Below are positions 1,134 through 63,238 of a stretch of 64,000 nucleotides of DNA, piece after piece. Origin of the DNA: Escherichia phage ECO07P1; sequence record OP172784; one strand, 5' to 3'. A program made the translations under genes and the position numbers. Position 1 is the stretch's first letter. The number at the start of each line of letters is the position of its first letter. The notes below the pieces were generated by a model. The model saw only the letters and a program-made list of their open reading frames with translations. It was not told where the DNA came from and ran no database searches.

Positions 1134-1469
1134 ATGTCTGAAGTACAACAGCTACCAATTCGTGCTGTCGGTGAATATGTTATTTTAGTTTCTGAACCTG
1201 CACAAGCCGGTGATGAAGAAGTTACAGAATCAGGACTTATTATCGGTAAACGTGTTCAAGGTGAAGTTCCTGAACTGTGTGTAATTCACTCTGTTGGTCC
1301 TGATGTTCCTGAAGGTTTCTGTGAAGTTGGTGATTTGACTTCTCTTCCAGTTGGTCAAATTCGAAACGTTCCGCATCCTTTTGTAGCTCTGGGTCTTAAG
1401 CAGCCAAAAGAAATTAAACAAAAATTCGTTACCTGTCACTATAAAGCTATTCCGTGTCTTTATAAGTGA
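1134..1469 (+). CDS. 31: co-chaperonin for GroEL (GroES-like), gp31
   Basis: 111 aa; translation [22 protein letters not shown].. matches T4 gp31 from memory; RBS AAGGAAAAACGATG; MotA-type middle promoter upstream. Confidence 0.85.
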
Positions 1470-1479
1470 TATAAATAAT

Positions 1480-1487
1480 AATATGAA
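1480..1487 (+). promoter_or_regulatory. late promoter-like TATAAATA upstream of rIII
   Basis: Exact TATAAATA; about 130 nt upstream of the rIII start, so assignment is tentative. Confidence 0.35.
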
Positions 1488-1616
1488 TTGGATGTCGGAA
1501 TAATAAGTTAACCGAACAATTCTATGTGGTAGTCTACAACTGAGAGATCTGTCGAAAGAAGATGAAATTCAGAAGAACGTGACTACCGAGTTTTAATCTC
1601 TAACGAGAATTTTTAA

Positions 1617-1865
1617 ATGATTAAACAATTACAACACGCTCTTGAACTGCAACGAAACGCATGGAATAATGGTCACGAAAACTATGGTGCATCTATTGAT
1701 GTTGAAGCCGAAGCTCTTGAAATCCTGCGTTATTTCAAACATCTGAATCCTGCTCAAACTGCATTAGCTGCTGAGCTTCAGGAAAAAGATGAACTTAAGT
1801 ATGCTAAGCCTCTGGCTTCTGCTGCACGAAAAGCAGTTCGTCACTTTGTGGTAACACTGAAGTAA
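1617..1865 (+). CDS. rIII: rIII lysis-inhibition accessory protein
   Basis: 82 aa, same length and sequence as recalled T4 RIII; lies between gene 31 and ligase-side small ORFs as in T4. Confidence 0.8.
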   Translation: MIKQLQHALELQRNAWNNGHENYGASIDVEAEALEILRYFKHLNPAQTALAAELQEKDELKYAKPLASAARKAVRHFVVTLK

Positions 1866-2058
1866 TTTATTGGAGAGTCACTGCCTTAGTGTGAAGTTAA
1901 AACGAGGAGCCGTCGAACTTTGTTTTACGGTGTACCTCTTGAATGATGACGGGTTTATGGTTATCCTGTCGTTAAATATCCAAAACCTATGTTCCCCTTG
2001 AGGGCTTGCGCAGGCAATGCCAATAAGTCCTGCATTTTCATTTAAAAGAGAATTTATA

Positions 2059-2235
2059 ATGGCAAAACAAGTTAAAGCAAAGAAAGCAGTTGAAAAGAAA
2101 GTTGGTGATTCTAAACGCGCTGGCTACAAGCGTGGGTCGAACTCTCGTATCAATCAAACTGTTGAGAAGATCATGCGTCGAGCACGTGCGGTTCTTCGAG
2201 ATGATGCTTCTCGTTTTGGTAAGCAGAAAGCATAA
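2059..2235 (+). CDS. small lysine/arginine-rich hypothetical protein (58 aa from ATG at 2059)
   Basis: ORF MAKQVKAKKAVEKK..; followed directly by a strong hairpin terminator at 2239-2266. Confidence 0.35.
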   Translation: MAKQVKAKKAVEKKVGDSKRAGYKRGSNSRINQTVEKIMRRARAVLRDDASRFGKQKA

Positions 2236-2238
2236 GTT

Positions 2239-2266
2239 GAGGACTCCTTCGGGAGTCCTTTTTTAT
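2239..2266 (+). terminator. intrinsic terminator hairpin
   Basis: AGGACTCC-TTCG-GGAGTCCT followed by TTTTTTATTTT. Confidence 0.7.
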
Positions 2267-2288
2267 TTTCCAAAGATTGCACAAAGTT

Positions 2289-2338
2289 GTTTACAGTATA
2301 GTTCCTTTGTGATAGTATTATCTTACACAAACAAAGGA
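2289..2338 (+). promoter_or_regulatory. early promoter cassette (GTTTAC -35, TGa-TAGTAT extended -10) embedded in an inverted repeat that overlaps the downstream RBS
   Basis: GTTTAC 2289-2294; -10 at 2313-2318; arms TCCTTTGT (2303-2310) and ACAAAGGA (2331-2338). Confidence 0.55.
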
Positions 2339-2345
2339 GAATAAA

Positions 2346-2678
2346 ATGAAAACGATTAATCTGAACGCTACAGTTAAAACTAAATGCTTCAATGGTAAAT
2401 ATGATGAAACTATGTGGTTCTTAATGGCAGTTGAAGGTGATATTATTGAAGTAGAAACAACAGAAGGTATGGGAACAGATTTCACCTTTACAATTCAAGT
2501 TCATAATTTCTTTACTGGTTGGATTTATGAATTGAATACAGTAATCGTTGGAAAAATTGAACAAAATGAATTGGGTGAATGGTATTATGTTACAGCTCGT
2601 CAACGTGCCGAACGCTTAATTGAGAAGATGAAAAAAGTTGGTAAACTTGACATGCAGCACTGGAAAGTAGTAAAATAA
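2346..2678 (+). CDS. hypothetical early protein (110 aa)
   Basis: ORF with strong RBS AAGGAGAATAAAATG and early promoter cassette at 2289-2318. Confidence 0.5.
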   Translation: MKTINLNATVKTKCFNGKYDETMWFLMAVEGDIIEVETTEGMGTDFTFTIQVHNFFTGWIYELNTVIVGKIEQNELGEWYYVTARQRAERLIEKMKKVGKLDMQHWKVVK

Positions 2679-2746
2679 TTGTTTACTTTGGTACAGGATA
2701 TGATATTATATACCTGTACCGCAATTAAACATCTCGGAGAATAAAA

Positions 2747-3112
2747 ATGAATTACATCAACTTTGAACGTAAATATGTTTCTAACGGTATTGCAGGTTCT
2801 ATTGATACTATCTGCCTTTGGAAACATCAAAATGGATCAGTATGCGAAATTGAACAGTATATGACTCCTAACTACGTTTATATGCGATTTGAAAATGGCA
2901 TTACGGTTTCAATCACGAAAGAAGGTTCTTCTTTTAAAATCGCTTTGGATGATGATTTTCGTCAACGTGATTTAGGGACTCATCCTTGCTGGAATGGCGT
3001 TAATCGTAAGCTTCTGGTTAAAACTTGGATTCGTCATATTCTGAGTAATAGAGCTAAACCTGAGCATCTTGAAGCAATCTTTGATGTAGTTCTTAACGAA
3101 TTTGATATTTAA
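2747..3112 (+). CDS. hypothetical protein (121 aa)
   Basis: ORF with RBS GGAGAATAAAAATG; hairpin AAGGGGCTTCGGCCCCTT downstream at 3121-3138. Confidence 0.5.
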   Translation: MNYINFERKYVSNGIAGSIDTICLWKHQNGSVCEIEQYMTPNYVYMRFENGITVSITKEGSSFKIALDDDFRQRDLGTHPCWNGVNRKLLVKTWIRHILSNRAKPEHLEAIFDVVLNEFDI

Positions 3113-3120
3113 AATAAAAT

Positions 3121-3138
3121 AAGGGGCTTCGGCCCCTT
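3121..3138 (+). terminator. stem-loop (UUCG tetraloop)
   Basis: AAGGGGC-TTCG-GCCCCTT; no long T-run, so may act as an RNA stability element rather than a terminator. Confidence 0.4.
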
Positions 3139-3153
3139 ACTGAGGAAAATACT

Positions 3154-3441
3154 ATGTTTATGACTACTTATTTTGATACTCGTAAAAACTTCTGCGAAGT
3201 AGTTTTCTCTAAGGCGCCTAAAGACCTTCCTGCTCATTTGCAGCCTACCAGTGAATCGATTAAAAACTATGTTAATGTAGTATGTCCTTTAGAGTTCCGT
3301 ACTGTAAATGGGCGTGATACTCTAGCTATCACTAAACTCAACCGTGAAATTGACATTGACCCTTCAATCGCGCGCGAAATTAACATTTCTGATATCGGCG
3401 GCGGTAATGTTAAATCGCATGGTTTTCAGATGAGGTTCTAA
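3154..3441 (+). CDS. hypothetical protein (95 aa)
   Basis: ORF with RBS GAGGAAAATACTATG. Confidence 0.45.
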   Translation: MFMTTYFDTRKNFCEVVFSKAPKDLPAHLQPTSESIKNYVNVVCPLEFRTVNGRDTLAITKLNREIDIDPSIAREINISDIGGGNVKSHGFQMRF

Positions 3442-6854: not shown

Positions 6855-7039
6855 AAGCTTACTTAGAAACAATTGTCATTGCTCAAAAAGAAGGTGGAGA
6901 TGTTTCTACTTCTGTATCACAAGTCATTCTCGAATTTGTAGATGCATATGCTTATAATAAATTTACAGAAACATTTGATGCCTATGAAAAAGGACCAAAG
7001 TTTGAAATATATCGTACTCTCTTACCACTAGATTACTAA
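6851..7039 (+). CDS. hypothetical protein (62 aa)
   Basis: ORF start overlaps ligase stop (ATGA); followed by hairpin 7038-7054. Confidence 0.4.
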   Translation: MKAYLETIVIAQKEGGDVSTSVSQVILEFVDAYAYNKFTETFDAYEKGPKFEIYRTLLPLDY

Positions 7040-7059
7040 AGGCCTTCGGGCCTTTAATT
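7038..7059 (+). terminator. hairpin terminator between ligase-side small ORF and alt
   Basis: AAAGGCC-TTCG-GGCCTTT then AATTTT. Confidence 0.5.
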
Positions 7060-7060
7060 T

Positions 7061-7068
7061 TATAAATA
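7061..7068 (+). promoter_or_regulatory. late promoter TATAAATA upstream of alt
   Basis: Exact TATAAATA about 20 nt upstream of the alt start. Confidence 0.6.
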
Positions 7069-7088
7069 GAATAAACACTAGAGAGGCT

Positions 7089-9185
7089 ATGATGGAACTT
7101 ATTACAGAATTATTTGACGAAGATACTACTCTTCCGATTACAAACTTAAATCCAAAGAAGAAAATACCGCAAATTTTTTCAGTTCATGTTGATGACGCAA
7201 TTGAACAACCAGGCTTTCGTTTATGTACCTATACATCTGGAGGTGATACTAATCGCGATTTAAAAATGGGCGATAAAATGATGCATATTGTTCCTTTTAC
7301 ATTAACTGCTAAAGGTTCAATTGCTAAATTAAAAGGTCTCGGTCCAAGCCCAATTAATTATATCAATTCAGTTTTTACTGTTGCAATGCAGACGATGCGT
7401 CAGTATAAAATTGATGCCTGTATGCTCCGTATTCTTAAGTCTAAAACTGCTGGTCAAGCTCGACAAATTCAAGTTATTGCTGATAGACTTATCCGTAGTC
7501 GTTCGGGTGGCAGATACGTCCTTCTTAAGGAACTCTGGGATTACGATAAAAAGTATGCATATATTCTTATACATCGCAAAAATGTATCACTAGAAGACAT
7601 TCCAGGAGTTCCGGAAATTAGCACCGAGCTCTTTACTAAAGTTGAATCGAAGGTCGGTGATGTTTATATCAATAAAGATACTGGAGCTCAAGTAACTAAA
7701 AATGAGGCAATTGCTGCATCTATTGCGCAAGAAAATGATAAACGTTCTGACCAAGCTGTAATCGTTAAAGTTAAAATTTCCCGTAGAGCAATTGCACAAA
7801 GTCAATCATTAGAATCTTCTAGATTTGAAAGCGAATTATTCCAGAAGTATGAATCTACCGCAGCTAATTTCAATAAACCTGCTACCGCTCCTTTAATTCC
7901 CGAAGCAGAAGAAATGAAACTTGGAATTAATTCATTGGCTTCTAAAACTAAGGCAGCAAAAATTATTGCTGAAGGAACTGCAGATGAACTTCACTATGAT
8001 TATAAATTCTTTTCAAAAAGTGAGGTTAATGAAGTTTCTGAAAAAATTAAAGATGTAATTTTTAACGCGATCAAAAATGAACCGACTACTTCAATAAAAT
8101 GTTTAGAGAAGTATGCAGCAGCTATTAATAAATTCTTTGAAGAATATAAAGATACTTGGCTTGATAAACATAATAAAACCCGTAAAGGACAGCCAGATGA
8201 AGTCTGGGAAGAAATAACTAAAAATTCCTGGAACGCAGCAAAAACTAAATTCCTCAAACGAATGATTTATAGCTTTTCTGGAATTGGTGCAGGTCCAATG
8301 ATTGATATTACTATTGCCCGTGATGGTTCTAAATATACTCCATCACAAAAGCGCGGCATTAGAGAGTATTGTGGTTCAGGATATACTGACATCAATAATC
8401 TTCTTTTAGGACGCTACAATCCAGAACGATATGATGTAATGAGTGAAAAAGAAATTGAATCTGCTATAAATAACTTAGATTCAGCTTTTGAAAATGGTGA
8501 CCGTATACCGGAAGGCATTACAGTTTATCGTGCACAAAGTATGACTGCTCCTATATACGAAGCACTAGTTAAAAATAAAGTGTTCTATTTCAGAAATTTT
8601 GTATCTACTTCTTTAACTCCTATCATTTTTGGGCGTTTTGGAATTACACATGCTGGTATTGGTCTTTTAGAACCAGAAGCTCGTAATGAATTAACAGTTG
8701 ATAAAAATGAAGAAGGAATAACTATTAATCCAAACGAAATAAGAGCGTATAAAGAAAATCCTGAATACGTTAAAGTTCAAATAGGATGGGCAATTGATGG
8801 AGCTCATAAAGTTAATGTTGTATATCCAGGAAGTCTCGGAATAGCAACAGAAGCTGAAGTTATTCTACCACGCGGATTGATGGTCAAAGTTAATAAAATA
8901 ACTGATGCTTCTAATAACGACGGAACAACATCTAATAATACAAAACTCATTCAAGCTGAAGTTATGACTACGGAAGAACTCACCGAATCAGTCATTTATG
9001 ACGGTGACCGTCTAATGGAAACTGGTGAAGTAGTTGCAATGACAGGTGATATTGAAATAGAAGACAGAGTTGACTTTGCATCATTTGTTTCATCAAATGT
9101 TAAACAAAAAGTAGAATCATCTCTTGGAATTATTGCGTCTTGCATAGATATTACAAACATGCCTTACAAGTTCGTTCAAGGATAA
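7089..9185 (+). CDS. alt: Alt-like ADP-ribosyltransferase (virion-packaged), copy 1
   Basis: 698 aa; N-terminus M(M)ELITELFDEDTTLPITN matches T4 Alt from memory; ART-type R / STS / ExE elements (YRAQS.., FVSTS, EAEVILPRG); late promoter TATAAATA at 7061-7068. Confidence 0.85.
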   Translation: MMELITELFDEDTTLPITNLNPKKKIPQIFSVHVDDAIEQPGFRLCTYTSGGDTNRDLKMGDKMMHIVPFTLTAKGSIAKLKGLGPSPINYINSVFTVAMQTMRQYKIDACMLRILKSKTAGQARQIQVIADRLIRSRSGGRYVLLKELWDYDKKYAYILIHRKNVSLEDIPGVPEISTELFTKVESKVGDVYINKDTGAQVTKNEAIAASIAQENDKRSDQAVIVKVKISRRAIAQSQSLESSRFESELFQKYESTAANFNKPATAPLIPEAEEMKLGINSLASKTKAAKIIAEGTADELHYDYKFFSKSEVNEVSEKIKDVIFNAIKNEPTTSIKCLEKYAAAINKFFEEYKDTWLDKHNKTRKGQPDEVWEEITKNSWNAAKTKFLKRMIYSFSGIGAGPMIDITIARDGSKYTPSQKRGIREYCGSGYTDINNLLLGRYNPERYDVMSEKEIESAINNLDSAFENGDRIPEGITVYRAQSMTAPIYEALVKNKVFYFRNFVSTSLTPIIFGRFGITHAGIGLLEPEARNELTVDKNEEGITINPNEIRAYKENPEYVKVQIGWAIDGAHKVNVVYPGSLGIATEAEVILPRGLMVKVNKITDASNNDGTTSNNTKLIQAEVMTTEELTESVIYDGDRLMETGEVVAMTGDIEIEDRVDFASFVSSNVKQKVESSLGIIASCIDITNMPYKFVQG

Positions 9186-9188
9186 ATC

Positions 9189-11246
9189 ATGGAACTTATT
9201 ACAGAATTATTTGACGGCGCTTCGGCGCCGGTTGTTAACTTAAATCCTAAGCATAAAATACCTCAAATTTTCGCTATTCAAGCCGGTGAAGAAAGTGTGC
9301 TTCCTGGATTTAGATTTTGTACATACACCTCTGGCGGTGATACAAATAAAAACGTTAAGCCAGGCGATAAAATGATGCATATCGTAATGATAGGTGTTAA
9401 TGAGAAATTATCATTAGTTAAACTTAAAAACTTGGGTGGAAATCCAATTGGTGTTATTAATGCGGTTTTTGATACTGCTCTTCAAACAATGAAACAGTAT
9501 AAAATTGACGCATGCCTATTCCGCGTACTAAAAAGTAAAACAAATGGCGCAGCTCGTCAAATGCAAGTTATTGCTGACCGTTTAGTACGTACTAAAGGAG
9601 CAGGTCGATATGTTCTTTTAAAGGAAATCTGGGATTATGATAAAAAGTATGCATATATTATGGTTTACCGTAAAAATGCCAATTTAGAAGACATTCCAGG
9701 TGTACCTCCTATTTCAACTGAGTTATTCACAAAAGTTGAATCAAAGGTTGGTGATGTTTATGTAGATGTTAAAACAGGTAATGCTGTTCCTAAAGCTGTT
9801 GCTGTTGCTGCTTCTATTGCTTTAGAAAATGATAAGCGCACGGATCAAGCTGTTATTCAGAAAACTAAAATTAGTCGTCGATTAGCAGCGCAAGCTCAAT
9901 ATTCTACTGTAGATGCTTCGCTTCAGGGTGATAGCTTCGCTGCCAAGAAATATCAAGAGTTTGAATCTAAAGTTCCGGTATATAAAGCAGAAGGACCAAT
10001 GAACTCTGGCGTTATTCAGATTGGTTCAAACTTCAGCAAAGGAGCTATCGGTGGTATGAGAAGTGCTTCTCGTTTTAAATCTAGCGATTATGAACTAGAA
10101 AACTTCCGAAATCATATTGCATTGGCTCATGCGCGTTTACGTGATCCATCTATCAAGTTACAGAGCGATATAACATATCAAGGTTCTCAGGAATATTTAA
10201 AGAATAAAGAATTTTTTGATTATAAAACTGATAAAATTTTAAGCGATCTTGCTGACATTAATATTTCTAATAGCTTTGATGTTATTAAGAAAATCGTCAA
10301 TGATTTAGTTAAAGGTTCTAAAGCCACGCCAGACGAAAAGATAGCTATTGTTCAATTTGTCATGAATGGCATTTATAAATTGATTAATGAGTCTGCTTCT
10401 CAAGCGTATGAATATGCAAGTACCGAAGTACCCCCAAAAGGATTAACTCAGGCTGAGTCTGATGTAATTGAAGATTATTGTGCAGATTCATATGTTGAAA
10501 TGAACTCGTTCCTCTTGGGTAAACCAGATTCTACCCGTGAAGAATACATGGAACGAGCTATTAAACACATCGAGACGCTGGATTCTGCATTCGCCAAAGG
10601 ATCAGTTCTTCCTCCAGGAACTACGCTTTATCGTGGACAAGAAGTTACTTTTAAAACTTTACGCCATAATATTGAAAATAAAATGTTCTATTTCAAGAAC
10701 TTCGTATCAACATCGCTTAAACCAAATATCTTCGGTGAGTATGGTAAAAACTATATGGCCCTAGATGATTCTGGTGCAGTATTTTCTGGTGAAGGAGAAG
10801 GTTCAGTTGATGCTGAAGATTTAATGCATATGGGCAGTCACTCTGCTTACGCGAATGAAGATGCTGAAACTAGCGTGGGTATGGTAATTAAAGGGGCTGA
10901 GCGAATCAAAGTTATCGTTCCAGGTCATTTATCAGGATTTCCATCAGAAGCTGAAGTTATTCTACCGCGCGGAATTTTACTGAAGATTAATAAAGTAAGT
11001 ACGTACTTTATGAAAGAAACTGCTTATAACAAGTATCTAATAGAAGGTACAATCGTTCCTCCTTCTGAACAATTAGAGGAATCGGTATATGATGGCGACC
11101 ATCTAATGGAAACTGGCGAAGTTCGTCCAATGGCTGGATTTAATCAATTCCTTGTAGAAGAATCAAAAGAAGAGGAAAACGAAGTTTCTCAAATCTTAGC
11201 TTCTTTGGTTAACATTAACGGAATGTCTAAAAAGTTCAAAATGTAG
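9189..11246 (+). CDS. Alt-like ADP-ribosyltransferase paralog, copy 2
   Basis: 685 aa; N-terminus and C-terminal ART core (YRGQE.., FVSTS, EAEVILPRG) conserved with copy 1, central region divergent; starts 3 nt after copy 1 stop. Confidence 0.8.
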   Translation: MELITELFDGASAPVVNLNPKHKIPQIFAIQAGEESVLPGFRFCTYTSGGDTNKNVKPGDKMMHIVMIGVNEKLSLVKLKNLGGNPIGVINAVFDTALQTMKQYKIDACLFRVLKSKTNGAARQMQVIADRLVRTKGAGRYVLLKEIWDYDKKYAYIMVYRKNANLEDIPGVPPISTELFTKVESKVGDVYVDVKTGNAVPKAVAVAASIALENDKRTDQAVIQKTKISRRLAAQAQYSTVDASLQGDSFAAKKYQEFESKVPVYKAEGPMNSGVIQIGSNFSKGAIGGMRSASRFKSSDYELENFRNHIALAHARLRDPSIKLQSDITYQGSQEYLKNKEFFDYKTDKILSDLADINISNSFDVIKKIVNDLVKGSKATPDEKIAIVQFVMNGIYKLINESASQAYEYASTEVPPKGLTQAESDVIEDYCADSYVEMNSFLLGKPDSTREEYMERAIKHIETLDSAFAKGSVLPPGTTLYRGQEVTFKTLRHNIENKMFYFKNFVSTSLKPNIFGEYGKNYMALDDSGAVFSGEGEGSVDAEDLMHMGSHSAYANEDAETSVGMVIKGAERIKVIVPGHLSGFPSEAEVILPRGILLKINKVSTYFMKETAYNKYLIEGTIVPPSEQLEESVYDGDHLMETGEVRPMAGFNQFLVEESKEEENEVSQILASLVNINGMSKKFKM

Positions 11247-11301
11247 TTTACAAGTTCCTCATGTTGTGTTATAGTAGTCTTACTGACATAACATGAGGAA
11301 C
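11246..11301 (+). promoter_or_regulatory. early promoter (GTTTAC, TGt-TATAGT) nested inside a 12-bp inverted repeat whose 3' arm contains the RBS of ORF 11307
   Basis: GTTTAC 11246-11251; -10 11270-11275; arms GTTCCTCATGTT (11255-11266) and AACATGAGGAAC (11290-11301). Confidence 0.55.
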
Positions 11302-11306
11302 ACAAA

Positions 11307-11597
11307 ATGAAATCTTCTTTGCGCTTTTTAGGTCAAGAACTTGTAGTTGAAGGCGTTATTCCTGCTGATAACGCTTTTAATGAAGCAGTTTACGATGAAT
11401 TTATCAAAATTTTTGGAACAGATAAAAAGTTCGGAATTTTTCCTTCTGAAAATTTTTCAAAGCCAGAACAGACTGAAAGTATTTTTCAGGGTGTGGTAAC
11501 AGGTAAATTTGAGTCAGAAGCTCCGGTAAAAATTGAAGTTTATATTGAAGACAGTTTAGTTGCTTCAGTTGCTGCTTTCATTTCATTCCGTAAATAA
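11307..11597 (+). CDS. hypothetical protein (96 aa)
   Basis: ORF with RBS GAGGAACACAAAATG; own early promoter cassette; hairpin terminator at 11602-11623. Confidence 0.45.
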   Translation: MKSSLRFLGQELVVEGVIPADNAFNEAVYDEFIKIFGTDKKFGIFPSENFSKPEQTESIFQGVVTGKFESEAPVKIEVYIEDSLVASVAAFISFRK

Positions 11598-17116: not shown

Positions 17117-17865
17117 TATTGTTTATCCTTCTCAATCAGTTTTAATACGAATCCGCGCTCGGCAGGAATCATTTTCATTATTGAATTTAAGCTATAATTA
17201 CTTTTTACGAGCGTGTGATTAATTTGATAAAAAGTAAATATTTCATCTGGGTTAACTAATAGCTTAAACACATCTACTATATCAGTGTATTTTTTTACAT
17301 ACTTATTACAACACGACATATGCAATGTTAAATTAATAGGATTCATTGCATCGAGAATTTTTTCTAGTGTTTCTATCTCGATGGCGTCAACTAGTTCTAT
17401 TTGACTGGACTCGCTAATTTCCTTCCAATCATACCATGTTTCATCTACTTGAACAGAATGAATATTTTCAGTAATCATCTTTGCTTTATTTTCATAAAAC
17501 TCAGAAGGAAACTTTAATTTAATTTTAACATTAGCTACATCAAAAACAGGTTCCTTTAATTCTTTTTGATATATTTCAAATGGAACTGTCTTTTCTTTTT
17601 TACATTTTGGACACACAAATGTGACTGGTACTTTAGTTTTACCTATTGACCCTACAAATACCTGCAAAAATATAAATGGTTGCCAAGTCTTCGGATAGTC
17701 TCCAAAATAATCAGCAATTAAATCAGCAATTATTTCTTTTTGTTCTTGTGGTGATCGATGTTCTATATCGTTTCGAACTAACAAAAAATCTCGATAATCT
17801 TCTACCGTAAATGGTTTAAAACGATGAACACCATCTGGTAATTTACAACGAATAATGTTTGCCAT
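17116..17865 (-). CDS. 51: baseplate hub assembly catalyst gp51
   Basis: 249 aa, as T4 gp51; late promoter TATTTATA (minus sense) at 17883-17890. Confidence 0.8.
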
Positions 17866-17882
17866 AGATGCTCCTTTTATTC

Positions 17883-17894
17883 TATTTATAAATA
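17883..17894. promoter_or_regulatory. overlapping divergent late promoters for gene 51 (-) and gene 26 (+)
   Basis: Palindromic TATTTATAAATA: TATTTATA 17883-17890 (minus sense) and TATAAATA 17887-17894 (plus sense). Confidence 0.6.
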
Positions 17895-17915
17895 TGATAA
17901 ATAAAGGAGCTAAAT

Positions 17916-18542
17916 ATGTATGAATACAAATTTGACGTGAGAGTTGGTTCTAAAATAATCAACTGTCGTGCATTTACTCTTAAAGAATATCTAGAACTTA
18001 TTACTGCTAAAAAGAACGGTTCAGTAGAAGAGATCGTTAAAAAGCTAATTAAAGACTGTACAAATGCAAAAGATTTAAACCGTCAAGAATCAGAGCTACT
18101 GTTGATTCATTTATGGGCGCATTCTCTTGGAGAAGTTAATCACGAAAACTCCTGGAAGTGCACCTGTGGAACTGAAATACCAACCCATATAAATCTATTA
18201 CATACGCAAATAGATGCACCAGAAGACCTCTGGTATACACTGGGTGACATTAAAATTAAGTTCCATTACCCTAAAATTTTTGATGATAAAAATATAGCCC
18301 ACATGATAGTATCATGTATAGAAACGATTCATGCTAACGGTGAAAGCATTCCAATTGAAGACTTGAATGAAAAAGAGTTGGAAGATTTATATTCTATCAT
18401 CACAGAGTCAGATATTGTAGCTATAAAAGATATGCTTTTAAAGCCTACTGTTTATTTGGCTGTTCCGATTAAATGTCCAGAGTGTGGAAAATCTCACGCT
18501 CATGTAATAAGAGGACTCAAAGAATTCTTTGAGCTATTGTAA
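17916..18542 (+). CDS. 26: baseplate hub subunit gp26
   Basis: 208 aa, as T4 gp26; late promoter TATAAATA at 17887-17894; RBS AAGGAG. Confidence 0.8.
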
Positions 18543-45589: not shown

Positions 45590-46455
45590 TATTGAGCCAC
45601 CCCGATTTTCTGCGTAGCGATAACTTTAACTGCTGCTCTCATACCGACAGTTGAAGAACTTATAGTCGCCGTTACATAATTTTCTTTAATACTAAATGCA
45701 ATATTAGCGATTTCGTCTTCTTCGGTTTCATTCCCAACTCGCATGACAGCATATTCAGAAGAAATGACCTCTGAATTAACAGTATCCACAAGAATATTTA
45801 TTTCTGCCGTTTTAATTTTTCTTCCATCTACTGATTGGCATGTAACTAACAATTTAGCCATGTTATATTCAGTACGATGAAATAGTGGAATATCAACTGA
45901 TCCGGATGTAGAAATATTCCATGTACCTTCAGCAGGTGATTCCTTTTGACCAAACATACTTTCAATAGAATAATTCCACACCGATGTAGAATTATCAGAT
46001 GAAATACAACGTAAAGTTACTTTACTATATGGGCTAGTTACTACTAAATTACCTGAAACACCTTTAATTGAATCAATGGCTTGAATTGTTAAAGGATTAG
46101 TAACTGATATTGATCCATTTGAGTTAATAAATTCAACACAATCACCAAGTTCGCCTCTTTCAATGATAACTTTAACACCTACAGTAGAGGTATCAATATC
46201 ATGTCTAGTGCCAACTTTCACTGGAGTTGCGTACTCTGCAATAGAGTGTTTTTGATAATATCCAGTAGCATGGATAATTTGACCATCTGCTCCAGTGCCA
46301 TTTGCTACTGCCATTTTGCGCTGATCGCCAAACGCATTATAAATTGCGTTAAAATCACTATTAATTTTATTACCACCGTCGAATAAGATATCACCAGTAG
46401 AAGCGTTACCAATTTCGCCGGTATCAATCAATTTCTTTGGTTCTTGAATGAACAT
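45589..46455 (-). CDS. 9: baseplate wedge / long tail fibre socket gp9
   Basis: 288 aa; late promoter at 46480-46487. Confidence 0.85.
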   Translation of the reverse strand: MFIQEPKKLIDTGEIGNASTGDILFDGGNKINSDFNAIYNAFGDQRKMAVANGTGADGQIIHATGYYQKHSIAEYATPVKVGTRHDIDTSTVGVKVIIERGELGDCVEFINSNGSISVTNPLTIQAIDSIKGVSGNLVVTSPYSKVTLRCISSDNSTSVWNYSIESMFGQKESPAEGTWNISTSGSVDIPLFHRTEYNMAKLLVTCQSVDGRKIKTAEINILVDTVNSEVISSEYAVMRVGNETEEDEIANIAFSIKENYVTATISSSTVGMRAAVKVIATQKIGVAQ

Positions 46456-46479
46456 AGCGGTTTCCTTATGAGTTTATAG

Positions 46480-46487
46480 TATTTATA
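46480..46487 (-). promoter_or_regulatory. late promoter upstream of gene 9
   Basis: TATAAATA on minus strand. Confidence 0.55.
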
Positions 46488-46493
46488 AAGAAA

Positions 46494-46513
46494 AAGGGAG
46501 CCCATGGGCTCCC
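46494..46513 (-). terminator. perfect palindrome hairpin between genes 8 and 9
   Basis: AGGGAGCCCATGGGCTCCCT, fully self-complementary. Confidence 0.45.
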
Positions 46514-46518
46514 TCAAT

Positions 46519-47523
46519 TTAAAATGTAAACAGAATATTGATTTCTTCTGTTTGATCCATTGCCATGATAATAGGTGGCCTATTTTCCATATAAATCATT
46601 TCGCCCGAATGCCTCATTAAATCTTCCGGATCATAATAATCCTTTTCAGCTTTAACGTTTGGGTCATTTGGATGAGCTTTAGCTTCAAGAGGATTCGTGA
46701 TTATTGATATTTGTCTAAATCCTTTATTTCCTGGCAATGCAGCTTCAGGAAAATAAACTGAATCTAAATATGCTTTAAAACGGATAGTATTTGCCTTAAC
46801 CCGATAAATTAATCCAAAATCATCTTGTTGCCAAGTGAGATTATCTTCATACCCCCATCTAGTCGGGTCTTCTTTTAATTCCTCAGGCCAAGGAACCACA
46901 ATATATTCATTCGTGCATCTATTTATAGATACATCGGGCGGAATCTCAAAAAGATATTCCCATACATATCCGTCTCCAGGTTCAATTGTTCCTTCCGCGT
47001 CTCCTCGACCTTCAGGAGGAGTCATTGACCTAGCAGAAGGAGTCCATTTTCCACCTAACTTAAGGCATTCATCTTTATCAGTTAAAGATGCTATTGAACA
47101 CATTCCGGTATCAGGAACATCTAAACAACGATATACTAACCAGCCTGCGCCTGATTCGGTAGCATTGTAAGGAGCTGAGTTACACACTACAATATCGTTA
47201 ATTCTAAATGTGTATGGATCCGGATATCTAGTATCTCCCCAATCTCGACGAGGAATAACTGCATCAAGCATAGATGGAAGAACCTTCACGGTTCCCATCA
47301 TATGAGTCCACATGTCAGTTACACCTAATACAGAATCGGTGGGATAAGGTGGGGCAAATCCCACCTCATTTTCATTTGATGACCATGGTTCTGATCTTCC
47401 AAATGTGATAAAGATAGTGTTTTTATCCGGACCACTTCCAATTGAATTATAAAAATTCAACATTTTTTCTGTTCTAAATTTTGAAGTAACTATCGCACGA
47501 TAGATAACACTTGAATCATTCAT
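46519..47523 (-). CDS. 8: baseplate wedge protein gp8
   Basis: 334 aa, synteny. Confidence 0.85.
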   Translation of the reverse strand: MNDSSVIYRAIVTSKFRTEKMLNFYNSIGSGPDKNTIFITFGRSEPWSSNENEVGFAPPYPTDSVLGVTDMWTHMMGTVKVLPSMLDAVIPRRDWGDTRYPDPYTFRINDIVVCNSAPYNATESGAGWLVYRCLDVPDTGMCSIASLTDKDECLKLGGKWTPSARSMTPPEGRGDAEGTIEPGDGYVWEYLFEIPPDVSINRCTNEYIVVPWPEELKEDPTRWGYEDNLTWQQDDFGLIYRVKANTIRFKAYLDSVYFPEAALPGNKGFRQISIITNPLEAKAHPNDPNVKAEKDYYDPEDLMRHSGEMIYMENRPPIIMAMDQTEEINILFTF

Positions 47524-55152: not shown

Positions 55153-55726
55153 AAGATTTCTCCATTATACGTATAAGGTCGTTCATAAATGAATTGATGT
55201 CTGATTTTGCTATTATTTTTATTTGACGAAGTTTTTCATTTTCAAGAACAGCAGCTTCATACGTATCGACCGCAGCAAGTGCTCCTTCATATTGAGGATA
55301 TTTTCTGGCTTTATCGCCTTTGTCATACCAAACATATGGGTTATCATCATATGATATTAAATTATAAAATTTTTCACCGTTCTCATTCACATGATATACT
55401 ATTTGGTCTCCACCTATGTTTTTGTATTTTTGTATAGATGCTTGATAAGCAGCTTCTTGCGAAGTAATCCATCCATAATACGGATCATAATTATCATTAC
55501 ACATCAATAAAACCCAATACAACTGCGGATTTCCATATATAGCATTTGCTAATTCTTCCGGGCGTGGTGAACCTTTAATATAATAAGTACGTAAGCGATA
55601 TCCCGCAAGAGCGCGTTTGAAATAGTCTTTATAGTTTCTAAAAATATCTGTCATAGGAATAGTCGGCGCGTTTTTATTCACCGTTTTGGCCGCATATTCA
55701 ATCGGATCAAAAAATGTAAAGAGCAT
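55136..55726 (-). CDS. 53: baseplate wedge protein gp53
   Basis: 196 aa; late promoter at 55755-55762. Confidence 0.8.
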   Translation of the reverse strand: MLFTFFDPIEYAAKTVNKNAPTIPMTDIFRNYKDYFKRALAGYRLRTYYIKGSPRPEELANAIYGNPQLYWVLLMCNDNYDPYYGWITSQEAAYQASIQKYKNIGGDQIVYHVNENGEKFYNLISYDDNPYVWYDKGDKARKYPQYEGALAAVDTYEAAVLENEKLRQIKIIAKSDINSFMNDLIRIMEKSYGNDK

Positions 55727-55739
55727 GGGCCCTCCTGTT

Positions 55740-55762
55740 TATAAATATATTATCTATTTATA
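55740..55762. promoter_or_regulatory. back-to-back divergent late promoters for gene 4 (+) and gene 53 (-)
   Basis: TATAAATA plus-sense at 55740-55747 and minus-sense at 55755-55762. Confidence 0.6.
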
Positions 55763-55773
55763 AGGAGAATCCA

Positions 55774-56226
55774 ATGGCATATTCTGGAAAATGGGTTCCT
55801 AAAAATATATCAAAATATAGAGGTGACCCTAAAAAAATTACGTATAGATCAAATTGGGAAAAATTCTTTTTTGAATGGTTAGATAAAAATCCAGAAATTA
55901 TTGCATGGGGTAGTGAAACAGCAGTAATTCCTTATTTTTGTAATGCAGAAGGGAAAAAACGTAGATACTTCATGGATATTTGGATGAAAGATTCTTCTGG
56001 GCAAGAATTTTTTATTGAAATAAAACCTAAAAAAGAAACACAACCACCAGTTAAACCAGCACATCTAACAACTGCGGCGAAGAAAAGATTTATGAATGAA
56101 ATTTATACATATTCCGTTAATACCGACAAATGGAAAGCAGCACAATCTTTAGCTGAAAAGCGTGGAATAAAATTTAGAATTCTAACAGAAGATGGATTAC
56201 GAGCTCTTGGCTTTAAGGGGGCATAA
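55774..56226 (+). CDS. 4: head completion protein gp4
   Basis: 150 aa; late promoter TATAAATA at 55740-55747; RBS AAGGAGAAT. Confidence 0.8.
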
Positions 56227-59171: not shown

Positions 59172-59210
59172 GTTTACACGGGGTTTTAGTTGTGATACTA
59201 TTACCCTATC
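59172..59210 (+). promoter_or_regulatory. early promoter cassette upstream of first IP-like gene
   Basis: GTTTAC 59172-59177, TGa-TACTAT at 59196-59201, followed by ACCCTATC. Confidence 0.6.
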
Positions 59211-59237
59211 AAAACAAATGAGTGATTGGAGAATAAA

Positions 59238-59510
59238 ATGAAAACATTTAAAGAATTTATCAATGAAGCTGCTTTTAACGAAAAAGTAAAAATTAGCAAA
59301 GCTGTCAAGACTATGATTGATAACATCAATTACCTATATGGTATTGATTTAACTGACTATGTAACAGTTGGTAACAAACGTAACTATTTCGTGTTTGACA
59401 TCTCTGAACTTGACCAGAATCAAATTAACAACATTGAGCGTTTTGCTAATGATAAGGGTCTTCGTCATGAGTCAGCGGGTTATAAAAAATACGCAATTTA
59501 TTTAAAATGA
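59238..59510 (+). CDS. internal-protein-like small protein with N-terminal capsid targeting sequence
   Basis: Starts MKTFKEFINE|AA.., matching the T4 IP capsid-targeting sequence/gp21 cleavage context (MKTYQEFIAE|A recalled); preceded by early promoter cassette and RBS GGAGAATAAAATG. Confidence 0.6.
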   Translation: MKTFKEFINEAAFNEKVKISKAVKTMIDNINYLYGIDLTDYVTVGNKRNYFVFDISELDQNQINNIERFANDKGLRHESAGYKKYAIYLK

Positions 59511-59545
59511 GTTTACTTTTAAATAGGGTTGTGGTACTATTATCT
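59511..59545 (+). promoter_or_regulatory. early promoter cassette upstream of second IP-like gene
   Basis: GTTTAC 59511-59516, TGg-TACTAT extended -10. Confidence 0.55.
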
Positions 59546-59570
59546 CATCAAAATTAATTAGGAAAATAAA

Positions 59571-59879
59571 ATGAAAACATTTAAAGAATTTATCAATGAA
59601 GCGGCTGCACCAAAGACATTCATTATTTATACTCAAGCGGGTCTTGATGATGAGTATGCGGAAGCAATTCTGAGGTCACTTGCTAAGAACGGTGTTGAAG
59701 TAATTGCTTCGGACTTTAAGAAAGGGGCTTCCGAGATGTTTATTTCTATAACTAAAGGATCTAAAGCTAAAATCAAATCATCATTCGGTGTTGCTCGTAC
59801 CGATCAAATCGACAATCATGACTTTAAACAAACTGGTGCTAAACGACAGAATACAATTGCATCACGCGGAATAAAATAG
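59571..59879 (+). CDS. internal-protein-like small protein with capsid targeting sequence
   Basis: Starts MKTFKEFINE|AAAPK..; own early promoter cassette. Confidence 0.6.
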   Translation: MKTFKEFINEAAAPKTFIIYTQAGLDDEYAEAILRSLAKNGVEVIASDFKKGASEMFISITKGSKAKIKSSFGVARTDQIDNHDFKQTGAKRQNTIASRGIK

Positions 59880-59891
59880 TTTATAAAAACC

Positions 59892-59930
59892 GTTTACTTT
59901 TAGATAGGGTAGTGATACTATTACCCTATC
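59892..59930 (+). promoter_or_regulatory. early promoter cassette with flanking inverted repeat (promoter-early-stem-loop-like)
   Basis: GTTTAC 59892-59897; arms GATAGGGTA and TACCCTATC flank the -10 GTGATACTAT. Confidence 0.6.
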
Positions 59931-59949
59931 AACTACTGAGGAGAATAAA

Positions 59950-60174
59950 ATGAAAACATGTAAAAAATTTATTGTAGAAGCTAAAAGACACGAAGACGAA
60001 CTGCCTTTTGTTTCAAAAACCTTTGATGGAACATTGGCTGATTTTAAAAAAATTCCTAATGATAAACTTGCTAAATTGGTTGGTTCTATTAGTGAAAAAG
60101 ATGGCAAGGTCACATTTTCTGCTCAAGGCGTTGCCAATCTCAAGAAACTTTTGAAAGCCGCTGGTGTTGAATAA
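59950..60174 (+). CDS. internal-protein-like small protein with degenerate capsid targeting sequence
   Basis: Starts MKTCKKFIVE|AK..; own early promoter cassette and RBS GAGGAGAATAAAATG. Confidence 0.5.
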   Translation: MKTCKKFIVEAKRHEDELPFVSKTFDGTLADFKKIPNDKLAKLVGSISEKDGKVTFSAQGVANLKKLLKAAGVE

Positions 60175-60177
60175 ATT

Positions 60178-60216
60178 GTTTACATAGGGTTTTAGTTGTG
60201 ATACTATTACCCTATC
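60178..60216 (+). promoter_or_regulatory. early promoter cassette with flanking inverted repeat
   Basis: GTTTAC 60178-60183; arms ATAGGGT and ACCCTAT; identical leader ACCCTATCAACTACTGAGGAGAATAAAATG as at 59920-59952. Confidence 0.6.
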
Positions 60217-60235
60217 AACTACTGAGGAGAATAAA

Positions 60236-60418
60236 ATGAAACGTTGTGAATTAATTCGAAATGTTGCTATTGCAATTTCTGCTTCTGCTTTTAGTTTTTC
60301 AATGTTTGTTGGATTTATATGCGGATTATTGACTACAGCAGAAAATGTTTTTTCACTTGTAGTAGCATTTTTAATTGGTTTAATTGCTATCGTTATGGAT
60401 AAAATTTCTAAAGGTTAA
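60236..60418 (+). CDS. small membrane protein (two predicted hydrophobic helices)
   Basis: 60 aa; hydrophobic stretches AIAISASAFSFSMFVGFICGLL and VFSLVVAFLIGLIAIV; own early promoter cassette. Confidence 0.45.
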   Translation: MKRCELIRNVAIAISASAFSFSMFVGFICGLLTTAENVFSLVVAFLIGLIAIVMDKISKG

Positions 60419-60805: not shown

Positions 60806-60878
60806 TGGGAATTAGCCAAGTTGGTAAGGCACTGGATTTTGATTCCAGGATGCAAAGGTTCGAGTCCTTTATTCCCAG
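60806..60878 (+). tRNA. tRNA-Gln (anticodon UUG)
   Basis: Hand-folded cloverleaf: acceptor TGGGAAT/ATTCCCA, anticodon stem CTGGA/TCCAG with loop TTTTGAT, T-arm AAAGG-TTCGAGT-CCTTT. Confidence 0.8.
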
Positions 60879-60879
60879 C

Positions 60880-60966
60880 GCGAGAATGGTCAAATTGGTA
60901 AAGGCACAGCACTTAAAATGCTGCGGAATGATTTCCTTGTGGGTTCGAGTCCCACTTCTCGCACCA
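60880..60966 (+). tRNA. tRNA-Leu (anticodon UAA), class II with long variable arm
   Basis: Acceptor GCGAGAA/TTCTCGC, anticodon loop CTTAAAA, long variable arm, T-loop TTCGAGT, 3' CCA encoded. Confidence 0.8.
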
Positions 60967-60971
60967 AATTT

Positions 60972-61045
<74 letters not shown>

Positions 61046-61055
61046 ATTTAATTTA

Positions 61056-61130
61056 CTCCGTGTAGCTCAGTTTGGTAGAGCGTCTGCTTTGGGAGCAGAA
61101 TGTCGCAGGTTCAAATCCTGCCGCGGAGAC
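61056..61130 (+). tRNA. tRNA-Pro (anticodon UGG)
   Basis: Acceptor CTCCGTG/CGCGGAG, anticodon stem TCTGC/GCAGA with loop TTTGGGA, T-loop TTCAAAT. Confidence 0.8.
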
Positions 61131-61131
61131 T

Positions 61132-61221
61132 GGAGGCGTGGCAGAGTGGTTTAATGCACCGGTCTTGAAAACCGGCAGTCGCTCCGGCGACTCATAGGTT
61201 CAAATCCTATCGCCTCCGCCA
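61132..61221 (+). tRNA. tRNA-Ser (anticodon UGA), class II
   Basis: Acceptor GGAGGCG/CGCCTCC, anticodon stem CCGGT/ACCGG with loop CTTGAAA, long variable arm, CCA encoded. Confidence 0.8.
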
Positions 61222-61226
61222 GTTTT

Positions 61227-61302
61227 GCTGATTTAGCTTAGTAGGTAGAGCAACTCACTTGTAATGAGAAGGTCGGCGGTTCGATTCCGTCAATCAGCAC
61301 CA
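61227..61302 (+). tRNA. tRNA-Thr (anticodon UGU)
   Basis: Acceptor GCTGATT/AATCAGC, anticodon loop CTTGTAA, T-loop TTCGATT, CCA encoded. Confidence 0.8.
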
Positions 61303-61303
61303 A

Positions 61304-61378
61304 GGCCCTGTAGCTGGAAGGTTCAAGCAAGCGACTCATAATCGCCAGATGGTGGTTCAATTCCACCCAGGGCCACCA
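61304..61378 (+). tRNA. tRNA with CAU anticodon (Ile via lysidine modification, or Met)
   Basis: Acceptor GGCCCTG/CAGGGCC, anticodon loop CTCATAA, T-loop TTCAATT, CCA encoded; the T4 equivalent is recalled as annotated Ile. Confidence 0.75.
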
Positions 61379-61391
61379 AATTAAGAATTAA

Positions 61392-61478
61392 GGGGAGTTA
61401 TCCCGTAGAGGTAGCGGTGTGGACTGTAAATCCATTGTCATTGCGACTCGGGTGGTTCGACTCCATCACTCCCCACCA
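61392..61478 (+). tRNA. tRNA-Tyr (anticodon GUA), class II
   Basis: Acceptor GGGGAGT/ACTCCCC, anticodon stem GTGGA/TCCAT with loop CTGTAAA, 15-nt variable arm as expected for bacterial-type tRNA-Tyr, T-loop TTCGACT, CCA encoded. Confidence 0.7.
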
Positions 61479-61482
61479 ATTT

Positions 61483-61557
61483 GGATGTGTAGCTCAATGG
61501 CAGAGCGATCGCCTGTTAAGCGATTGGTTATAGGTTCGAATCCTATCACGTCCGCCA
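61483..61557 (+). tRNA. tRNA-Asn (anticodon GUU)
   Basis: Acceptor GGATGTG/CACGTCC (one G-U), anticodon stem ATCGC/GCGAT with loop CTGTTAA, T-loop TTCGAAT, CCA encoded. Confidence 0.7.
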
Positions 61558-61561
61558 AATC

Positions 61562-61637
61562 CGAGGCATAGCTCAGAAGGAAGAGCAAGGACCTTCTAAG
61601 TCCTAGGTCGTAGGTTCGATCCCTACTGCCTCGACCA
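61562..61637 (+). tRNA. tRNA-Arg (anticodon UCU)
   Basis: Acceptor CGAGGCA/TGCCTCG, anticodon stem AGGAC/GTCCT with loop CTTCTAA, T-loop TTCGATC, CCA encoded. Confidence 0.8.
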
Positions 61638-62433: not shown

Positions 62434-62997
62434 ATGAAAACTTATGCCGAATTTTTAACCGAAGCAGCAAAATTACCATCTGAAGCAGAACTTACTAAAG
62501 TATTCTTCCAATTGGACCCAAAAGACCGTGGCGATTTTCTTAAGTGGAAAGCTAAAGCTATTGAAATGTATAACATTGATAATAGTTCTTTTACGATGAG
62601 TCAAGAAAATAAATTCAATAAAGCATTTTTCAAAATTTCTAAGAAACTGGCATCTGGCGCTCAGGTTCCTAAATCTGCCTTAGCTACTCCTGAACGTGCG
62701 CCTGTTAAAATTTCTAAGAATATGTTCGACACTAAAAAATACGTTAATGCTTTGAATAAAGCTCTTGATGCATTGGATGATGCAAAGAAGGCAGCCCGTG
62801 ATCTTCAAGACGTGTACATCGATTTTGATCGTAAAACTAAAGGTTCTATTTCAAATAGCGAACGCAATAGTGTAAGCGTTTATTCTGATAGCCTTGACGT
62901 TCTTGGCGATGCGTATACTGAAATTAAAAATCGTATTAACACCGCATCTAAACTAAAAGCTGCCGCAGAAGCTATAATAGCTAAACTAGATAAATAA
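62434..62997 (+). CDS. internal-protein-like protein with capsid targeting sequence (IPIII-sized)
   Basis: 187 aa starting MKTYAEFLTE|AAK.., very close to the recalled T4 IP capsid-targeting sequence; followed by terminator 63005-63030. Confidence 0.6.
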   Translation: MKTYAEFLTEAAKLPSEAELTKVFFQLDPKDRGDFLKWKAKAIEMYNIDNSSFTMSQENKFNKAFFKISKKLASGAQVPKSALATPERAPVKISKNMFDTKKYVNALNKALDALDDAKKAARDLQDVYIDFDRKTKGSISNSERNSVSVYSDSLDVLGDAYTEIKNRINTASKLKAAAEAIIAKLDK

Positions 62998-63164: not shown

Positions 63165-63200
63165 GTTTACATCCCCGTTCTTCCATGGTACTATACAACT
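63165..63200 (+). promoter_or_regulatory. early promoter with A/T-rich upstream element
   Basis: TTTTTAAAAAATTTTTT tract, GTTTAC 63165-63170, GG-TACTAT -10, leader TATCAACTACTGA. Confidence 0.55.
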
Positions 63201-63238
63201 ATCAACTACTGATACAGAAAAACAACTTGGAGAATGAA

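Follow-up and report, generated by a model that had tools for sequence, protein, structure and literature searches.

Translation that depends on the promoter from which a messenger started is an established device of bacteriophage T4. Hairpins in the messengers of e, soc, 49, I-TevI/II/III and segB, and in that of mobE of phage Aeh1, bury the Shine-Dalgarno (SD) sequence, the AUG or both in RNAs started upstream (PMC3014915, PMC2988022). For e, soc, 49 and I-TevI this dependence has been demonstrated experimentally, in each case with late promoters (PMC3014915), and a 2010 review describes the genes regulated by such hairpins as 'all late genes' (PMC2988022). In the gene e type the promoter lies inside the structure, and its own transcripts lack the 5' arm and are translated. 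A second described arrangement is the PeSL cassette, composed of a stem-loop, an AT-rich region, an early promoter, an SD and an ATG (Arbiol et al. 2010, PMC2839356; Comeau et al. 2014, PMC4122927). Here we describe an inverted repeat in the early promoter of gene 30.8 of Escherichia phage ECO07P1, found in a stretch of 64,000 nucleotides of sequence record OP172784 (hereafter the window); the 3' arm of the repeat covers the SD of the gene.

The 30.8 element shares with the known hairpins the predicted burial of the SD in RNAs started upstream, and with the gene e type a promoter placed inside the structure, whose own transcripts would by consensus geometry lack the 5' arm. The promoters differ: the gene e type carries a gp55 late promoter (TATAAATA), whereas 30.8 carries a sigma-70 early promoter (GTTTAC-18-TAGTAT), and no TATAAATA late promoter occurs in 2270-2345. 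Compared with the gene e type the temporal logic would be reversed, with an early gene silenced on later and longer RNAs, and the 5' arm of 30.8 is peculiar in being written into the spacer of the promoter. The element is a variant of the gene e type and not a strict member of it, nor is it a new kind of system. A literature search found no description of SD sequestration by a hairpin embedded in an early promoter, with the older T4 literature thinly covered, and an earlier priority is possible.

We propose, with a probability of roughly 0.6, that the hairpin acts as RNA and makes both the translation of 30.8 and the RegB sensitivity of its messenger depend on the promoter of origin. Our confidence in such a function is higher for the class of early promoters with this architecture than for the 30.8 instance.

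Promoter and hairpin of gene 30.8

An earlier note on this DNA had placed GTTTAC at 2289-2294, the arms TCCTTTGT and ACAAAGGA at 2303-2310 and 2331-2338 and TAGTAT at 2313-2318, and these coordinates are all exact; AAGGAG is at 2334-2339 and the ATG at 2346. Its assignment of an early promoter is borne out as well. GTTTAC at -36 to -31 is the T4 early-promoter consensus (PMC1524935); it is followed after 18 bp by a -10 element of the form TAnnnT with a preceding TGn, the upstream region is A/T-rich, and in T4 the gene is classed as early at the RNA as well as the protein level (PMC9697503 Table S2). The 18-bp spacing is common to 29 of the 31 T4 early promoters scanned here, and precisely the same 30 bp (2289-2318) are marked as a promoter in the independently made annotation of phage Lutter. 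The 3' arm does overlap the ribosome-binding site serving the open reading frame (ORF) at 2346, the SD sequence AAGGAG lying inside it. The helix reaches nine pairs through an added U2302·G2339, and the hairpin contains an inner helix of 3 bp (2315-2317/2324-2326).

The layout of a promoter-embedded repeat, as the note had described it, is correct, but the decisive feature of the anatomy, the position of the start site, was overlooked. By consensus spacing, transcription is predicted to begin at 2325, between the arms, so that the promoter's own RNA would lack the 5' arm; the CTTAC context of this start is also present at the alt.-3 promoter. As the 5' arm lies upstream of the predicted start, the hairpin should be possible only in RNAs initiated further upstream.

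The RNA spanning 2295-2350 folds exactly into the hairpin, with a minimum free energy (MFE) of -12.1 kcal/mol (z = -3.1; 2 of 200 shuffles as good), and the RNA starting at 2325 is predicted to be unstructured (MFE 0 kcal/mol). To open the ribosome site (-13 to +4) takes 11.1 kcal/mol in the long RNA and 0.2 in the RNA made from the promoter itself; gene e, a case validated by experiment, yields 15.2 for the long and 1.4 for the short RNA when calculated in this way. The 30.8 hairpin has a stability within the span covered by the validated structures of e, soc, 49 and I-TevI. In the long RNA the SD is paired with a probability of 0.96-0.97, and 30.8 ranks seventh among the 86 candidate gene starts of the window for occlusion by upstream sequence. 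Several of the other top-ranked starts belong to classical late-promoter hairpins (7089 of an alt paralogue, 17865/17916 and 55726/55774, with 46455 lower down), and two belong to early-promoter modules (11307 of alt.-3 and 63239 of an e.8-like gene). Gene 30.7 provides a negative control, its early promoter lying in a strong hairpin that leaves the SD unoccluded. A scan of 1400-3300 with Rfam covariance models returned just two sub-threshold chance matches.

Two observations adjoin these results. SD sequestration by a hairpin enclosing a late promoter (TATAAATA) is predicted for the first alt paralogue (7010-7095), where CUCUCU/AGAGAG spans a terminator (MFE -22.8, z = -3.4). The same layout is predicted for the divergent late gene pairs 17865/17916 (17800-17930) and 55726/55774 (55690-55790), probably genes 53/4, and a late-promoter hairpin also for a gene of 288 amino acids starting at 46455 (about 46455-46530, minus strand). 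The 30.7 hairpin (GGTACAGGATAT/ATATACCTGTACC; MFE -20.1, z = -4.7) has a geometry like that of the RB49-type PeSL stem-loops, of which it fits the subclass overlapping the -10; it may serve as an attenuator, an RNA stabilizer or a processing site.

Proposed mechanism and expression context

A strong terminator (2239-2270) precedes the promoter, and RNAs carrying both arms must therefore be read-through products. This terminator is annotated as such in phages OE5505 and Lutter and is kept 5' of the promoter in most genera. In the mechanism we propose, long RNAs would be formed when transcripts of 31, rIII and 30.9, whether early, middle (from P31 or Pcd) or late, read through the terminator of 30.9; in these RNAs 2302-2310 would pair with 2331-2339 and bury the SD and the RegB site. 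RNAs from the embedded early promoter, beginning near 2325 and lacking the 5' arm, would offer an open leader of 21 nt, be translated immediately and then be exposed to cleavage by RegB. The immediate-early transcript of 30.8 would in effect be the sole source of gp30.8, whose synthesis would end when the early promoters shut off.

Two documented middle promoters of T4, P31 (131540) and Pcd (132839), are situated upstream (PMC2988021). In time-resolved omics of T4, alt.-3 is early for RNA and protein, as is 30.8; alt is late as protein and middle as RNA, 31 is late as protein and rIII middle as protein (PMC9697503 Table S2). These classes are compatible with early genes lying downstream of genes needed and transcribed at later times, which is no proof of translational silencing.

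The terminator has a further property. Its U-rich tail, TTTTATTTTCC (2262-2276), is complementary to GGAGAATAAAA (2336-2346) over 11 bp with one G·U. This tail is the partner of the SD in the MFE folds of the VR7 and Klebsiella-phage regions, not in that of T4, and is a possible second means of masking the translation initiation region (TIR) in read-through RNA.

Orthologues in other genera

The layout of terminator, early promoter and TIR is conserved at 30.8 across other genera, and the anti-SD segments differ in sequence and in their position within the promoter (Table 1). Across 19 lineages, the pairing of promoter and TIR compared with shuffled promoter segments gives a Fisher's combined p of 1.2e-4. 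Summed over the orthologues, promoters paired with their cognate TIRs reach -183.9 kcal/mol, and non-cognate combinations -149.3 +/- 8.6 (p = 2e-4). The cross-genus pattern amounts to covariation in the form of repeated re-invention, and the support for the 30.8 instance comes mainly from it.

Early promoters of T4 and of the window

The earlier note had suggested searching the genome for similar GTTTAC promoters. The T4 genome was scanned for every GTTTAC-type promoter that has an SD, an ATG and an ORF behind it, giving 31 promoter-gene pairs, nine of them with promoter/TIR duplexes at p <= 0.025 against shuffled controls; among the 11 early promoters of the window three qualify (30.8, alt.-3 and e.8). 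The promoter/TIR duplexes of the nine T4 hits amount to -23.4 kcal/mol in ndd.4, -21.9 in both nrdC.8 and alc, -20.5 in regB, -17.5 in denV, -15.3 in modB, -14.4 in mrh.2, -13.8 in motB.2 and -11.3 in 30.8. When 31 T4 pairs and eight from the window are taken together, cognate pairing stands out from non-cognate pairing with z = -5.7 (p <= 5e-5), and for seven promoters their own TIR is the best of all 39. Complementarity between a promoter and its own SD is well supported as a class, and the genes with self-pairing promoters include those of the regulators Alc, ModB and RegB.

The other occurrence of the architecture known to the earlier note, alt.-3, forms a 17-bp stem (MFE -27.9, z = -6.4), and its promoter and leader cassette is near-identical to that of alc. 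Among Tequatrovirus genomes its 5' arm varies, with two changes that are wobble-compatible and two that break pairs. A comparison of alt.-3 orthologues in other genera found a clear SD-pairing helix in Tequatrovirus and CkP1 only; the module is lineage-restricted. The e.8-like gene has a weaker, candidate third module, whose total MFE in a longer context is not significant (z = -1.1).

On a broader and more tentative generalization, to which we give somewhat less than even odds, T-even phages may systematically double-code a sizeable share of their early promoters, in T4 about a quarter to a third. The promoter DNA (spacer, -35 or -10) would also encode the anti-SD arm of its own gene, and immediate-early cistrons would be translated and cleaved by RegB only on promoter-proximal RNA, remaining silent and RegB-proof on delayed-early, middle or late RNA formed by read-through. 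Candidate examples are alc, regB, modB, denV, ndd.4, nrdC.8, mrh.2, motB.2, alt.-3 and 30.8.

Early promoters of the window also include a group with repeats of another extent. A capsid-targeting-like internal-protein motif, MKT(F/Y/C)xEF, opens four genes (59238, 59571, 59950 and 62434; regions 59172-60240 and 62434-62997), the first three of which have near-identical early-promoter cassettes with the -10 bracketed by GATAGGGTA/TACCCTATC-type repeats that stop short of the SD.

RNA or DNA level

Helices were searched for with a strand-symmetric score that penalizes G·U and A·C equally, and in those recovered the interior positions hold 22 G·U pairs and 3 A·C pairs. This bias indicates pairing in the sense-strand RNA and speaks against operators, cruciforms and antisense RNA. 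A comparison of sense and antisense duplex energies (16 of 22 favouring sense, p = 0.0025) was discarded, the cases having been preselected on sense energy.

An element acting in the DNA, as an operator for a dimeric repressor of the early promoter or as a cruciform modulating promoter melting, would suit the bracketing of the -10 by the arms, and the shut-off of T4 early promoters has been stated to be incompletely understood (PMC3014915). We regard such an element as extremely improbable. The sequences and positions of the arms vary between genes and genera, only the complementarity to the SD being kept; the excess of G·U fits sense RNA and not duplex DNA; and arms of 8 bp separated by 20 bp are ill suited to a cruciform or an operator.

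Chance or placement

Perfect inverted repeats of 8 bp or longer whose loops measure 3-30 nt number 80 in the window, where dinucleotide shuffles give 37.7 +/- 5.7. On its own, an inverted repeat of 8 bp is nothing unusual in this DNA, and what is non-random about the element, modestly, is its placement, with the 5' arm in the promoter and the 3' arm on the ribosome site: the promoter-segment/TIR duplex (-11.3 kcal/mol) gives p = 0.046, 0.023 and 0.007 against shuffled promoter segments in three runs. The inference of function from two occurrences, as drawn in the earlier note, is weak with 8-bp repeats at chance-like density; its conclusion holds for the class. The note had also declared in advance that a hairpin energy indistinguishable from shuffled controls, or a lack of arm conservation in related phages, would speak against it. 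The energy is distinguishable in 2295-2350 and not in an 86-nt context. The arms are invariant across Tequatrovirus, and this conservation leaves no variation there from which a covariation signal could come.

Several results weigh against a function of the hairpin at 30.8. The statistics from T4 only are marginal (p about 0.007-0.05 against shuffles). No other of the nine T4 hits has so weak a promoter/TIR duplex. The test of cognate against non-cognate pairing also puts 30.8 last in strength among the set (z = -1.0; its own TIR ranks 4 of 39), unlike eight other promoters with z of about -3 or below. When 86 nt are folded the hairpin remains the centroid, yet the z of the total energy is only -0.9. 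Half of the eight arm bases (TTGT) lie within TTGTG, the stretch before the -10 in most of the early promoters listed, and in our reading only TCCT of the 5' arm is free. No covariation of the arms occurs within Tequatrovirus, where they are invariant in about 500 genomes, and about 7 of the 19 orthologue lineages have no comparable pairing. Finally, the strong terminator lies 30 nt upstream, and read-through RNA may be scarce.

The low rank of 30.8, its weak duplex, the invariant arms and the terminator, together with the near-chance density of bare 8-bp repeats, favour an account in which the class is real and the complementarity at 30.8 a product of chance or a by-product, with TTGTG facing the leader ACAA and the spacer TCC facing GGA, and of no regulatory consequence as the terminator removes almost all read-through. 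We consider this account unlikely, although it deserves to be taken seriously. It sits poorly with the orthologues of other genera, which have re-created the complementarity of promoter and SD with unrelated sequences, in VR7 at the same spot with compensatory ones, and with a predicted occlusion of the 30.8 SD as complete as in the validated cases.

RegB site

The RegB/S1 site is the 11-nt single-stranded GGAGRAYARAA, with GGAGAAUAAAA as the optimum, and structured RNA inhibits the nuclease (PMC1702504). The TIR of 30.8, an early gene, contains an exact match to this consensus, which is predicted to be unstructured in the RNA of the gene's own promoter. On long RNAs the hairpin should hide the site from RegB and from ribosomes alike, whereas promoter-proximal RNA should present it openly. 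Among transcripts bearing GGAG, most middle and all late ones are resistant to RegB (PMC3014915).

It is conceivable that the main selected role of the hairpin is to shield this site on long middle and late messengers, permitting the expression of the downstream genes from 30.7 through ligase gene 30, and that the silencing of 30.8 is secondary. The exact consensus match, the block of RegB by structure and the resistance of the later GGAG transcripts all agree with such a role, as do several RegB-related members of the class (regB itself, nrdC.8, motB.2, modB and denV). Many other members, however, have non-consensus RegB contexts, for example GAGGAAC in alt.-3 and GAGGAC in alc, and the ligase region is already served by the downstream middle promoters P30.2 and P30 (PMC2988021). 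We judge shielding doubtful as the principal role; it does not, in any case, exclude an effect on translation.

Relation to PeSL cassettes

The PeSL stem-loops of RB49 and phi1 lie between or over the -35 and the -10, may contain G-T pairs and are always upstream of the start; they have been read as terminators or attenuators. In T4 and PST they are terminator-like hairpins 'just upstream of the promoter', and it is through the cassettes that genes are gained and lost (PMC2839356, PMC4122927). The 30.8 locus is in its layout a PeSL cassette of the T4/PST type, with the terminator at 2239-2270 followed by an AT-rich region, promoter, SD and ATG and with indels in T2 and ESh24. The separate hairpin at 2239-2270 fits the position of the PeSL stem-loop, being upstream and a terminator. 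The helix 2302-2339 is unlike it, straddling the predicted start, ending on the SD and having no U-tract. As an intrinsic terminator this helix was ruled out: GAAUAAAAUG follows it without a U-run, and it is absent from the terminator scan.

In phage T2, which lacks 30.8, the 30.8 promoter and hairpin are joined to the start of 30.7 through the shared GGAGAATAAA(A)ATG TIR (L059 367-500), and the gene was probably lost through exchange between the 30.8 and 30.7 cassettes. In ESh24 both 30.8 and 30.7 are missing, and the junction falls within the 3' arm (L062 367-520, aligned to window 2236-2365). Both deletions look like cassette recombination of the PeSL type.

The composite layout and these gene losses would also suit a hairpin that serves, as proposed for RB49 and phi1, as an attenuator or terminator of upstream transcription or as a recombination site. 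We think this very unlikely for the helix 2302-2339. No U-tract follows the 3' arm, the true terminator being at 2239-2270; PeSL stem-loops lie wholly upstream of the start, which the 30.8 helix straddles; and the T2 recombination junctions fall in the shared GGAGAATAAAA TIR and not in the arms. Translational control by promoter of origin is the reading we retain for this helix.

Gene context and other features of the window

The window belongs to Tequatrovirus, is 100% identical to Escherichia phage ECO07P3 over 1900-2800 and runs in the reverse orientation of the T4 reference. The ORF at 2346-2678 corresponds to T4 gene 30.8, its Pfam family (Phage_30_8) being of unknown function. It is flanked by 30.9 (2059-2235) and 30.7 (2747-3112), with the co-oriented genes rIII, 31 and cd 5' of the 30.9-30.8 locus and DNA ligase gene 30 on its 3' side. 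The 30.9-30.8 intergenic sequence is the same in T4 itself, base for base. Upstream, rIII and 30.9 are separated by a relatively GC-rich intergenic stretch of 190 nt (1866-2058), whose initial 60-80 nt or so are found in few related phages only and are given a small ORF in some annotations; folding of 1866-2058 revealed no significant structure (z = -1.1).

Elsewhere in the window, two full-length paralogues of the ADP-ribosyltransferase Alt stand in tandem (7089-9185 and 9189-11246), where T4 has a single alt plus the remnants alt.-1 and alt.-2. A cluster at 60806-61637 holds ten tRNA genes (Gln, Leu, Gly, Pro, Ser, Thr, Met, Tyr, Asn and Arg); for T4 eight tRNA genes have been reported (PMC1524935).

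Table 1. Positions of the promoter, hairpin and gene features at 30.8, of comparable modules in the window and in T4 (NC_000866), and pairing segments of 30.8 orthologues (5' arm/3' arm)
Feature	Genome	Position	Strand	Remarks
Intrinsic terminator after 30.9	window	2239-2270	+	terminator scan; 9-bp GC-rich stem, UUCG loop, then T-run
-35 element GTTTAC of the 30.8 early promoter (-36 to -31)	window	2289-2294	+	T4 early consensus match
5' arm (anti-SD) UUCCUUUGU, in promoter spacer (-23 to -15)	window	2302-2310	+	upstream of predicted start
Extended -10: TG 2310-2311, one base, TAGTAT 2313-2318	window	2310-2318	+	promoter scan, TTTACA-17-TAGTAT
Predicted +1, A in CTTAC	window	2325	+	consensus spacing (GTTTAC = -36); T4 130,274, minus strand
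3' arm ACAAAGGAG (+7 to +15), within 21-nt 5' untranslated region	window	2331-2339	+	sequence, folding; covers AAGGAG 2334-2339
Predicted RegB/S1 site GGAGAATAAAA	window	2336-2346	+	sequence; exact match to 11-nt consensus; overlaps SD and A of start codon
Gene 30.8	window	2346-2678	+	110 amino acids, Pfam Phage_30_8
30.7 early promoter and hairpin	window	2681-2720	+	folding; 12-13-bp hairpin 2690-2720 over -10, SD untouched; rank 84/86, free-energy difference (ddG) -1.3
alt.-3 module	window	11246-11309	+	GTTTAC 11246-11251, 5' arm 11254-11270, -10 TATAGT 11270-11275, predicted +1 11282, 3' arm 11285-11301 covering GAGGA, ATG 11307, ORF 11307-11597
Candidate third module, weaker, 5' of 87-amino-acid e.8-like ORF	window	63165-63241	+	spacer CGTTCTTCC pairs with GGAGAATG; predicted +1 63201, ATG 63239
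-35 of ndd.4	T4	166807
-35 of nrdC.8	T4	53943
-35 of denV	T4	65413
-35 of alc	T4	136336
-35 of regB	T4	62797
-35 of mrh.2	T4	15288
-35 of modB	T4	13186
-35 of motB.2	T4	8218
TCCAGTG/CACTGGA	VR7/Gaprivervirus			same spot as T4, compensatory sequence
CTACTGTGT/ACACACTAG	PM2
TCTTTAG/CTGGAGA	L045 group			two G·U pairs
TCTCCGG/CTGGAGA	Mosigvirus-like			adjoins -35
TTCTCC/GGAGAA	L034/L037/L040/L057
TTCTCCTTGTTT/AAACAAGGGGAA	L033
TTGCCTT(T)AATC/GATTAAGGCAA	L042			over -35
TCT-CCGTT/AACGG-AGA	Karam/Moon

Significance

If the proposed function is real, the same device that T4 uses for its late genes would be used in the opposite temporal direction, switching off immediate-early proteins, including Alc, ModB and RegB, once their promoters are silent. 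This would bear on the abrupt stop of early protein synthesis, which reviews call unresolved. It would likewise bear on a second question so described, the sparing by RegB of GGAG sites in middle and late RNAs, offering a partial explanation for resistance on longer transcripts. The PeSL concept would be refined, in that some promoter-associated stem-loops would be translational insulators and not terminators, and promoter spacers would carry a second code at the level of RNA. Were the arrangement general, it would add to the early-to-middle switch, and to the shut-off of early proteins, a genome-wide layer not described until now.

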